Below, piece by piece: positions 35,107 through 36,127 of a DNA stretch of 64,000 nt. The notes under the pieces are model-generated. The model worked only from the letters and a program-made list of their open reading frames with translations. It did not search any database and had not been told where the DNA came from. Positions within the stretch are counted from its first letter, which is position 1; the number at the start of each line of letters is the position of its first letter. Both the position numbers and the translations under genes were made by a program. Source of the stretch: a phage. The DNA is taken from NCBI GenBank assembly GCA_016389475.1, contig GCA_016389475.1_3042.1, one strand, 5' to 3'.

Positions 35107-35182
35107 TGGTCGAGGCAGTAGGGATCGAACCTACGACCCAGGACTTAGAAGGTCCTTGCTCTTCCTTCTGAGCTATGCCCCG
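35107..35182 (-). tRNA. tRNA-Arg (anticodon UCU)
   Basis: Manual cloverleaf: acceptor CGGGGCA/UGCCUCG, anticodon loop CU-UCU-AA, T-arm GUAGG-UUCGAUC-CCUAC, CCA encoded. Confidence 0.7.
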
Positions 35183-35186
35183 TAAT

Positions 35187-35262
35187 TGGGGTGACCGATG
35201 GGAGTCGAACCCATGACTACGAGAATCACAATCTCGAGTTCTACCAACTGAACTACGGCCAC
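35187..35262 (-). tRNA. tRNA-His-like (anticodon GUG)
   Basis: Acceptor GUGGCCG/CGGUCAC, loop UU-GUG-AU, discriminator C, CCA encoded; position -1 is U, not G. Confidence 0.6.
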
Positions 35263-35376
35263 ATTAATACCTACTCCAACAATCATGATGTCTTCACACG
35301 AAATTAAGAGAAGAGTGATCAGTTCAACCCCTATAATCGCGTCAAGTAGATATTAATGTGACAGTTGTCACAAATT

Positions 35377-35451
35377 TGGCGGACGTGATAGGATTCGAAC
35401 CTATAACCAATCGCTTAACAGGCGATCGCTCTGCCATTGAGCTACACATCC
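35377..35451 (-). tRNA. tRNA-Asn (anticodon GUU)
   Basis: Acceptor GGAUGUG/CACGUCC, loop CU-GUU-AA, T-loop UUCGAAU. Confidence 0.65.
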
Positions 35452-35455
35452 AAAT

Positions 35456-35542
35456 TGGTGGGGAGTGATGGAGTCGAACCACCCGAGTCGCAATGACAAT
35501 GAATTTACAGTCCACACCGCTACCTCTACGGGATAACTCCCC
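35456..35542 (-). tRNA. tRNA-Tyr (anticodon GUA), long-variable-arm type
   Basis: 87 nt; acceptor GGGGAGU/ACUCCCC, loop CU-GUA-AA, variable-arm hairpin GUCAUUGCGAC. Confidence 0.6.
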
Positions 35543-35554
35543 TAATTCATAATT

Positions 35555-35629
35555 TGGTGGCCCTGGGTGGAATTGAACCACCATCTGGCGATTATGAGTC
35601 GCTTGCTTGAACCTTCCAGCTACAGGGCC
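35555..35629 (-). tRNA. tRNA with CAU anticodon (Met, or Ile if lysidine-modified as in T4)
   Basis: Acceptor GGCCCUG/CAGGGCC, loop CU-CAU-AA, T-arm GGUGG-UUCAAUU-CCACC. Confidence 0.6.
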
Positions 35630-35630
35630 T

Positions 35631-35706
35631 TGGTGCTGATTGACGGAATCGAACCGCCGACATCCTCATTACAAGTGAGGTGCTCTACCTACTGAGCTAA
35701 ATCAGC
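35631..35706 (-). tRNA. tRNA-Thr (anticodon UGU)
   Basis: Acceptor GCUGAUU/AAUCAGC, loop CU-UGU-AA. Confidence 0.7.
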
Positions 35707-35711
35707 AAAAC

Positions 35712-35801
35712 TGGCGGAGGCGATAGGATTCGAACCTATGAGTCGCCGGAGCGACTGCCGGTTTTCAAGACCGGTGCATTCAACCACTCTGCCACGCCTC
35801 C
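35712..35801 (-). tRNA. tRNA-Ser (anticodon UGA), long-variable-arm type
   Basis: 90 nt; acceptor GGAGGCG/CGCCUCC, loop CU-UGA-AA. Confidence 0.7.
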
Positions 35802-35803
35802 AG

Positions 35804-35877
35804 TCTCCATACAAGGATTTGAACCTTGGACCTCCTGATCCCAAATCAGGCGCTCTACCAAACTGAGCTACACGGAG
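35804..35877 (-). tRNA. tRNA-Pro (anticodon UGG)
   Basis: Acceptor CUCCGUG/UAUGGAG, loop UU-UGG-GA; 3' CCA not encoded. Confidence 0.7.
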
Positions 35878-35887
35878 TAAATTAAAT

Positions 35888-35961
35888 TGGAGCGGATAAT
35901 GAGAATCGAACTCACATCATCAGATTGGAAGTCTGAGGTAATGCCATTATACGATATCCGC
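35888..35961 (-). tRNA. tRNA-Gly (anticodon UCC)
   Basis: Acceptor GCGGAUA/UAUCCGC, loop CU-UCC-AA. Confidence 0.7.
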
Positions 35962-35966
35962 AAATT

Positions 35967-36053
35967 TGGTGCGAGAAGTGGGACTCGAACCCACAAGGAA
36001 ATCATTCCGCAGCATTTTAAGTGCTGTGCCTTTACCAATTTGACCATTCTCGC
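35967..36053 (-). tRNA. tRNA-Leu (anticodon UAA), long-variable-arm type
   Basis: 87 nt; acceptor GCGAGAA/UUCUCGC, loop CU-UAA-AA. Confidence 0.7.
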
Positions 36054-36054
36054 G

Positions 36055-36127
36055 CTGGGAATAAAGGATTCGAACCTTTGCATCCTGGAATCAAAATCCA
36101 GTGCCTTACCAACTTGGCTAATTCCCA
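36055..36127 (-). tRNA. tRNA-Gln (anticodon UUG)
   Basis: Acceptor UGGGAAU/AUUCCCA, loop UU-UUG-AU; CCA not encoded. Confidence 0.7.

Follow-up and report, generated by a model that had tools for sequence, protein, structure and literature searches.

The tRNA genes of T-even phages have been studied since the 1970s. In phage T4 (NC_000866) they run in the order Gln-Leu-Gly-Pro-Ser-Thr-Ile-segB-Arg-rnaD-rnaC between trna.2 and the e.x genes, and the biological roles of the two RNAs at the end of the region, RNAC and RNAD, are unknown (PMC3014915). T2L, RB1 and RB3 lack segB, and the T2L tRNA region carries Met(CAU), Tyr, Asn and Arg genes, with the preferred SegB cleavage site within its tRNA-Asn gene; tRNA-His is not mentioned for T2L, the term occurring zero times in that paper (PMC2330249). 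The RNase P of E. coli cuts tRNA-His between positions -2 and -1 under the guidance of U-2, G-1 and C73, and a tRNA-His that has lost G-1 is charged more than 100-fold less (PMC5499578); the base of G-1 serves mainly to position the 5'-phosphate (PMC9976931). Here we analyze the tRNA gene cluster at positions 35107-36127 of a 64,000-nucleotide stretch of phage DNA (assembly GCA_016389475.1, contig GCA_016389475.1_3042.1; the whole stretch is referred to below as the window). We conclude, with a probability of roughly 85%, that the cluster represents the tRNA locus of a T-even (Tequatrovirus) phage, which lies at the same genomic position as in T4 and combines the tRNA cluster with a structured leader RNA and, directly after it, a tRNA-His that has U in place of G at -1.

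A tRNA-His gene without G-1 and its structured leader

ARAGORN, run on the whole window, predicts eleven tRNA genes, all on the minus strand and tiling 35107-36127, in the transcription order Gln (UUG), Leu (UAA), Gly (UCC), Pro (UGG), Ser (UGA), Thr (UGU), CAU, Tyr (GUA), Asn (GUU), His (GUG) and Arg (UCU). An earlier note on this DNA had proposed an eleven-tRNA cluster at the same place and had named ARAGORN as a check; the program returns the same genes, coordinates, order and anticodons, and ten of the eleven are also matched by the Rfam model RF00005 (59-75 bits, E values from 1e-10 to 1e-14, against a gathering score of 29). The cluster is already known, since the same eleven genes are annotated in hundreds of GenBank records. 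Over 1.3 kb the region is 99.4% identical to that of Escherichia phage CAM-21 (Tequatrovirus), where the same eleven tRNAs are annotated, and the identical arrangement is found in CAM-21 and many other Tequatrovirus records at 97-99% identity. Altogether, 1052 phage records match the region, and 267 cover at least 80% of the query. The location between trna.2 on one side and rnaD/rnaC and the e.x genes on the other, as well as the order Gln-Leu-Gly-Pro-Ser-Thr-CAU with Arg at the far end, are those of a T-even tRNA region.

The tRNA-His gene (35187-35262, minus strand; Rfam 65.1 bits) encodes a GUG anticodon, C73, CCA and an acceptor stem in which GUGGCCG pairs with CGGUCAC. Its G1, at 35262, is preceded by T at -1 (35263) and A at -2, whereas E. 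coli hisR, to which the gene is 80.3% identical, has U-2 and G-1 at the corresponding positions. The sequence therefore bears out the earlier description of a His-like tRNA with C73 but U at -1. Compared with a canonical bacterial tRNA-His (determinants as in PMC5499578), the GUG anticodon and C73 are present, and an encoded G-1 able to pair with C73 and accompanied by U-2 is absent. A register shift that would turn G35262 into G-1 was rejected because U8, the D stem and the CCA end would then no longer be intact.

We then compared 22 distinct variants of this tRNA-His type, which were drawn, together with the sequence preceding each gene, from phage records in GenBank, from IMG/VR contigs and from metagenomes. 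T(-1), C73 and the GUG anticodon occur in every one of them, and an encoded CCA in nearly all. In phages EnC07 and Melville the anticodon and T stems carry compensated changes, which show that a working tRNA is being selected for. T at -1 is also found in the tRNA-His of T5, which is only 65% identical to that of the window, of Serratia phage ChuuTotoro and of mycobacteriophage Yucca. In a broader pattern scan that yielded 53 distinct tRNA-His(GUG) genes, 21 have T and 32 have G at -1, and none has A or C. All 21 T(-1) variants, including those of T5, Aeromonas, Serratia and Mycobacterium phages, belong to arrays of at least four tRNAs, and 28 of the 32 G(-1) variants are isolated host-like genes, the other four being in arrays. 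The arrays with a U-1 tRNA-His come from T4-like phages of enterics and Aeromonas, T5, a Serratia Vequintavirinae phage and Bixzunavirus mycobacteriophages. Among the IMG/VR contigs (L035-L128), isolated host-like tRNA-His genes have the D stem TAGCT together with G-1, and large arrays mostly have TAGTT together with T-1; arrays that keep G-1 occur in L053, L105 and L047. No report of a phage tRNA-His without G-1 was found in the literature searched.

The 114-nt spacer between tRNA-Asn and tRNA-His (35263-35376) had been described in the earlier note as free of a tRNA fold and as a possible site of a small RNA. Neither ARAGORN nor Rfam at E<=10 gives a tRNA signal there, and the proposed small RNA draws its support from conservation and covariation. 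The spacer folds at -32.7 kcal/mol (z = -3.7) into a small 5' hairpin followed by a three-helix domain of 95 nt (35263-35357, minus strand), hereafter the leader. Helix P1 pairs 35344-35357 with 35263-35276 over 14 bp, and its 3' end is nucleotide -1 of tRNA-His; P2 pairs 35337-35342 with 35296-35301 and carries a variable hairpin; P3 is a hairpin at 35279-35293. The domain is present in 356 phage records. None of the 40 records listed across the ranking of these matches annotates an RNA feature at the leader, the only features there being a 2-nt overlap with the edge of a tRNA-Gln and one hypothetical protein. In Karamvirus, Gelderlandvirus, Moonvirus and Klebsiella T4-like phages, too, the leader immediately precedes tRNA-His, and there its upstream neighbor is tRNA-Gln, not tRNA-Asn.

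Compensatory changes across at least five Tevenvirinae genera support the fold. The alignment used contains 14 distinct sequences. Within it, 95% of the P1 cells are paired and three P1 positions show double compensation, and all four pairs of P3 covary. The covariation score of P1 and P3 exceeds those of all 500 shuffles and of all slid controls, and RNAalifold finds both helices unaided. The covariance model built from this alignment (R1) scores 96 bits on the window, 86 bits on Escherichia phage REP3 and 56 bits on locus L084. No Rfam family was found in the spacer when 34900-36400 was scanned at E<=10, and scanning viral contigs and metagenomes with a pattern for the leader added only a few loci. 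R1 also matches the window weakly at 44546-44649 on the minus strand (21 bits, E 0.17); the sequence there is a long hairpin rich in A+T, and we regard the match as probably due to chance.

Several other identities of the spacer were considered and rejected. Homology to rnaC or rnaD is not supported, as blastn at word size 7 against an 8-kb T4 locus gave only chance matches of 9-13 nt elsewhere. The sole open reading frame (ORF; 37 aa, 35173-35286) crosses tRNA-His, and many close relatives (L003, L009, L031) have TTG in place of its ATG, which argues against a protein-coding spacer. The spacer is not the site of segB insertion either, since in phage record OR062527 the endonuclease gene is located between His and Arg. 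The sense strand of the spacer contains no sigma-70-like site or terminator, the regional counts being equal to the shuffled expectation.

Upstream of the leader domain, a small hairpin, GUGAC-AACU-GUCAC preceded by U (35358-35371, minus strand), was identified from fold and sequence. It resembles the two ends of the tRNA-His acceptor stem, and its 3' arm GUCAC can pair with nucleotides 1-5 of tRNA-His; joined to P1, this pairing could run through the RNase P site as one uninterrupted helix of about 19 bp. The resemblance suggests that the hairpin may have been left behind when a tRNA-His copy was deleted; alternatively, it may be another conformer of the precursor or a site of the RNase III type.

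The same hairpin, which looks like a collapsed acceptor stem, is one of the points in favor of the explanation that the spacer is not a functional RNA at all, being instead the neutral leftover of tRNA genes that decayed, or else an element acting as DNA, such as inverted repeats left by a mobile cassette or a homing endonuclease site. In addition, the spacer termini are conserved and its interior has been exchanged between genera, homing endonuclease genes do insert in the tRNA region (PMC2330249), and A/U-rich spacers like the AAUU…AAUU at the outer end of P1 stand beside every tRNA in the cluster. Against this stand the doubly compensated pairs at three P1 positions and at all four P3 positions, the lack of any tRNA signal in the spacer, the location of the OR062527 endonuclease gene after tRNA-His and thus outside the spacer, and the fact that the RNA at the analogous position of T5 is annotated as a stable RNA. 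Further, G-U pairs are frequent at three positions of P1 (in 7, 7 and 5 of the 14 sequences), and since such pairs are complementary only in RNA of the tRNA sense, they argue against an inverted repeat acting at the DNA level. On balance we regard a non-functional or DNA-level spacer as unlikely, with a probability of about one in four.

Some observations nevertheless weigh against the joint interpretation of cluster, leader RNA and U-1 tRNA-His. The Tequatrovirus Escherichia phage REP3 (L012 1188-1313) keeps the leader and has lost tRNA-His, of which GTG and a few bases remain before tRNA-Arg begins, so that leader and tRNA-His are not obligatorily linked. The interior of the leader, including the P2 hairpin, has been swapped for unrelated sequence in Moonvirus and partly in Gelderlandvirus and Melville, and its replacement in the first two argues against a sequence-specific function for most of the leader. 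Keeping in mind that the sample of tRNA-His genes is biased by the search pattern and that the variants are related, the 21 of 21 T(-1) genes found in arrays correspond to about six independent contexts. Finally, transcription, the RNase P site of tRNA-His, its charging and the accumulation of leader RNA are steps that we infer, and a tRNA-His without G-1 may contribute little to translation.

Proposed maturation and charging of the U-1 tRNA-His

By analogy with T4 and E. coli, the eleven head-to-tail genes would be transcribed into one polycistronic precursor from promoters upstream of tRNA-Gln. Host RNase P would cut each 5' end, RNase E and 3' exonucleases would trim the 3' ends, and the host CCA-adding enzyme would complete the 3' ends of tRNA-Gln and tRNA-Pro. 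At tRNA-His, the presence of A-2 and U-1, with no -1:73 pair possible, makes canonical cleavage the most likely outcome, yielding a tRNA with a 7-bp acceptor stem and no nucleotide at -1. The host histidyl-tRNA synthetase (HisRS) would probably still charge this tRNA through C73 and the GUG anticodon, albeit inefficiently. We know of no G-1-adding enzyme in E. coli or in T-even phages, the proteins of the window not having been scanned for one. The earlier note had offered post-transcriptional addition of G-1 or an altered identity as ways out; a weak but usable substrate of HisRS, or retention of U-1, are further options, and both are simpler.

Retention of U-1 would mean that RNase P, swayed by C73 and the leader helix, cuts between -2 and -1, so that the extra 5' nucleotide with its 5'-phosphate makes the tRNA a reasonably good substrate of HisRS. 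Such processing would fit the invariance of T at -1 in 21 distinct variants and about six leader contexts, as well as the pairing of U-1 with A in a helix flush with G1 in enteric T4-like phages, in T5 and in most Aeromonas phage variants (7-10 bp). It would fit, too, the T5 GenBank record, in which tRNA-His is 78 nt long and starts with T(-1) and RNAIII ends one base earlier, although these boundaries may be an annotator's convention rather than a measurement. U at -1 is, however, the nucleotide preferred by E. coli RNase P for canonical cleavage, and the U-1 genes of Serratia phage ChuuTotoro and mycobacteriophage Yucca have no flush leader helix. With respect to the known determinants, C73 has been described as a negative determinant for canonical cleavage, but the positive determinants for cleavage at -2/-1 are absent, -2 being A and U-1 being unable to pair with C73 (PMC5499578); positioning of the 5'-monophosphate as the main role of the G-1 base (PMC9976931) again speaks for a retained nucleotide. 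Taken together, we consider retention of U-1 an alternative to be taken seriously, but less probable than canonical cleavage.

Still less probable, and in our view doubtful, is the explanation that the tRNA-His is not used in translation, being either a decaying gene or a hardly chargeable decoy or sponge that occupies a host nuclease directed against tRNAs: the major HisRS determinant G-1 is missing from it (PMC5499578), colicin E5-type anticodon nucleases attack four tRNAs, of which His is one beside Tyr, Asn and Asp (PMC1635277), and tRNA-His is dispensable, being lost in REP3 and absent from the published T2L cluster (PMC2330249), but the conservation of cloverleaf, GUG, C73 and CCA with compensatory stem changes across many genera rules out decay, the invariance of C73, which matters only for recognition by HisRS, indicates selection for charging, and according to the T5 record the body of its tRNA-His is an efficient amber suppressor once the anticodon has been changed.

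Beyond a canonically cleaved, weakly charged tRNA-His, we tentatively suggest, as a less probable elaboration, that the U-1 tRNA-His and the structured leader together constitute a phage-specific solution for the maturation or identity of tRNA-His, the leader possibly representing a new class of stable phage small RNA. The leader could guide RNase P to a cleavage that leaves pU-1; alternatively, a tRNA-His without G-1 could evade a host or competitor factor that recognizes G-1:C73 and still be usable by HisRS.

The other tRNA genes, the distal module and flanking elements

The genes proximal to the start of the cluster, on the minus strand like the rest, are tRNA-Gln (UUG; 36054-36127; Rfam 68.7 bits), the class II tRNA-Leu (UAA; 35967-36053; 59.3 bits), tRNA-Gly (UCC; 35888-35961; 63.3 bits), tRNA-Pro (UGG; 35803-35877; 66.8 bits), the class II tRNA-Ser (UGA; 35712-35801; 62.6 bits) and tRNA-Thr (UGU; 35631-35706; 75.4 bits). 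They are followed by the CAU tRNA (35555-35629; 59.9 bits), the class II tRNA-Tyr with A73 (GUA; 35456-35542), tRNA-Asn (GUU; 35377-35451; 74.1 bits) and, beyond leader and tRNA-His, tRNA-Arg (UCU; 35107-35182; 63.9 bits), which starts with a C1-G72 pair. The sequence confirms that Pro and Gln, as proposed earlier, lack an encoded CCA, whereas the other nine genes encode it: Gln ends in …CCCAG-C, i.e. G73 and one C, before G1 of Leu, and Pro ends in …GGAGA-C-T, i.e. A73, C and T, before G1 of Ser.

The specificity of the CAU tRNA can be judged from its relatives. Within 5,413 E. coli genomes it is matched best by annotated tRNA-Ile genes, with up to 81.6% identity over the full length, and compared with E. 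coli tRNA-Ile(CAT) the anticodon arm AGCGACUCAUAAUCGCC is identical and the acceptor stem starts with the same GGCCCU. The gene thus has a CAU anticodon within an anticodon arm and acceptor stem of the ileX type, not of the Met or fMet type, and most likely encodes, as in T4, a tRNA-Ile2 that would read AUA after modification of C34, not tRNA-Met. Given these matches, the 'Met' label assigned by ARAGORN and by many GenBank records is most likely wrong.

The tRNA-Tyr gene has the weakest model score of the eleven. It has no RF00005 match at gathering; the best model of the clan is tRNA-Sec with 29.9 bits, below the tRNA-Sec gathering score of 47, and the minimum-energy fold is not a cloverleaf. 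Therefore, whereas Rfam accepts the His and Asn folds, which together with Tyr the earlier note had put up for a covariance-model check, tRNA-Tyr stays under the threshold and yet is called by ARAGORN. The gene is clearly homologous to T5 tRNA-Tyr and identical at 86 of 87 positions to phage T6 tRNA-Tyr, which has experimental support (PMC13096335). On the strength of the ARAGORN call and the identity to T6 we accept the assignment.

With regard to T4, the order trna.4/3/2, tRNAs, rnaD, rnaC is common to both phages, but the window has no segB and has Tyr, Asn, the leader RNA and His in addition. Four of the proximal genes are 98-100% identical to those of T4: tRNA-Leu is T4's at 99 of 99 positions including flanks, and the figures for Gly, Pro and Thr are 85/86, 86/87 and 87/88. 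tRNA-Gln differs from T4 mainly in the anticodon stem, and tRNA-Ser encodes CCA in the window but not in T4, whereas Gln and Pro lack it in both. In contrast to these six tRNAs (88-100% identity), the CAU gene matches T4 tRNA-Ile at only 57 of 89 positions and the Arg gene matches T4 tRNA-Arg at 58 of 92, i.e. about 60%, and the Arg gene is not orthologous to that of T4. The earlier view that the eight T4 specificities are present with Tyr, Asn and His extra is accordingly correct at the level of specificity but does not hold as T4 plus three genes: the low identity of CAU and Arg means that the block CAU-Tyr-Asn-spacer-His-Arg is a different module, not T4 with three insertions. It seems that the distal half of the cluster was exchanged as a module, in keeping with the SegB-driven replacement of the region in crosses (PMC2330249). 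In T6 (AP018814), Tyr is present and followed by segB, and Pro, Ser, Asn and His are absent in the stretch examined. In OR062527 (2536-3362), the tRNA-His before the segB-like endonuclease gene ends in …GGTCACC followed by TTTTTT, the encoded CCA having been lost, and T4 tRNA-Ile, just before segB (T4 locus 3254-4034), is likewise without CCA. CCA-less tRNA genes of T-even phages may therefore be a by-product of the insertion of endonuclease genes at tRNA 3' ends.

Upstream of the cluster, just after the stop codon of trna.2, a predicted promoter-like site was read from the sequence at 36197-36221 (minus strand), composed of a MotA-box-like TGCTTTA, 12 nt and TATTAT, which is similar to the consensus of T4 middle (MotA-dependent) promoters. 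The 103 nt upstream of tRNA-Gln differ from T4 at two positions, neither of them within the TGCTTTA/TATTAT motif. Downstream, T4 has rnaD directly after tRNA-Arg with no gene between, whereas in the window a 116-aa ORF (34738-35088, minus strand; phrog_3355, E 9.5e-55; a hypothetical protein in CAM-21) is inserted, its stop codon abutting the rnaD-like sequence. The homologue of T4 rnaD (species 2 RNA; 34626-34738, minus strand) matches T4 at 96% in its ends and has a diverged middle, and that of rnaC (species 1 RNA; 34481-34619, minus strand), which has a tRNA-like T arm, is 97% identical over all 139 nt.

The tRNAs of the cluster would be expected to add reading capacity for codons heavily used by an A+T-rich phage. 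A second role is suggested by studies of other phages. Overexpressed or amplified T6 tRNA-Tyr overcomes Septu defence (PMC13096335), T5 tRNA-Tyr counters retron-Eco7 (PMC11555353), AriB of the PARIS system cleaves tRNA-Lys, Thr(UGU) and Asn(GUU), with T5 variants rescuing infection (PMC12409363), and colicin E5 targets tRNA-Tyr, His, Asn and Asp (PMC1635277). Tyr, Asn and His are thus all tRNAs cleaved by nucleases of the colicin E5 type, and Tyr and Asn are in addition known targets of Septu, retron-Eco7 and PARIS. The presence of the three extra genes may accordingly reflect a role against defence systems and not a tuning of codon usage; by this analogy they may replace tRNAs hit by defence nucleases, besides supplying codons.

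The leader RNA and the tRNA-His beside known systems

RNase P cleavage at tRNA-His would release a leader with a base-paired, exonuclease-resistant 3' end. The leader is situated inside the tRNA unit, between Asn and His, its 3' end is position -1 of tRNA-His and its helices P1 and P3 covary, and by analogy the released RNA may be a further small stable RNA of the tRNA region, comparable with T4 RNAC and RNAD or T5 RNAIII. Homology to described stable RNAs at the level of sequence or model was not found with R1 on the T4, T5 (E<=1) and Aeromonas phage loci or with Rfam.

The nearest counterpart in position is found in T5 (NC_005859), a siphovirus of another family, where RNAIII (30284-30389) lies directly 5' of tRNA-His (30206-30283). 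As in the window, the T5 tRNA-His has T at -1, C73 and CCA. RNAIII (about 106-110 nt) carries the annotation of a stable RNA with unknown function; together with its flanks it folds into a 15-bp helix that closes flush against G1 and includes a pair between U-1 and A. We rejected the idea that the leader is a homologue of RNAIII because R1 has no match in the T5 locus, the likeness being positional and architectural only.

Helices that end flush with the tRNA are not confined to these two cases. Most Aeromonas T4-like phages have a 7-10-bp hairpin flush before tRNA-His, with compensatory AUA/UAU versus ACG/CGU changes, and when a minimum of 9 bp is required, a flush helix is present in 16 of the 22 His spacers versus 3 of the 84 others. 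We do not claim that the flush helix is unique to tRNA-His, given that it is enriched but not exclusive, that the leader of a Karamvirus tRNA-Asp is flush too and that the His cases are related. In that Karamvirus, VPA32 (L005 755-997; also L008), tRNA-Asp is preceded by a 243-nt spacer whose final 13-bp helix reaches exactly to -1; Asp is the fourth tRNA with a GUN (queuosine) anticodon, beside Tyr, His and Asn. The arrays of Karamvirus, Gelderlandvirus and Moonvirus also contain rnaC-like RNAs with the T arm CCNGGTTCGAATCCNGG between tRNA-Trp and tRNA-Gly, RNA-like stretches being located at L005 1856-2004, L006 1846-2000, L015 1489-1640, L004 1675-1770 and 1856-1921, and L007 2155-2248. Most other long inter-tRNA spacers of these three genera fold with closing stems formed from their two ends, and the arrays may encode several unannotated small RNAs.

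Compared with T4, the leader has in common with RNAC and RNAD that it is a small structured RNA within the tRNA transcription unit, beside tRNA genes. It differs in that RNAC and RNAD follow the last tRNA, whereas the leader lies between two tRNAs, and in that the tRNA-like T arm of rnaC is absent from it. The roles of T4 RNAC and RNAD and of T5 RNAI and RNAIII are still unknown after decades, and a covarying leader with a fixed tie to one tRNA offers a tractable handle on such RNAs.

As for the tRNA-His itself, G-1 is regarded as a nearly universal identity mark, and the set of genes in phage arrays lacks it even though the HisRS of the hosts depends on G-1; the maturation and charging of these phage tRNAs would test how strict the G-1 rule is in vivo. 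Some alpha-proteobacteria and protists likewise have tRNA-His without an encoded G-1, with no guanylyltransferase known (PMC9976931, PMC4338351). Their type, however, combines A73 with a co-evolved, G-1-independent HisRS, whereas the phage tRNA combines C73 with the canonical, G-1-dependent HisRS of the host (PMC9976931).

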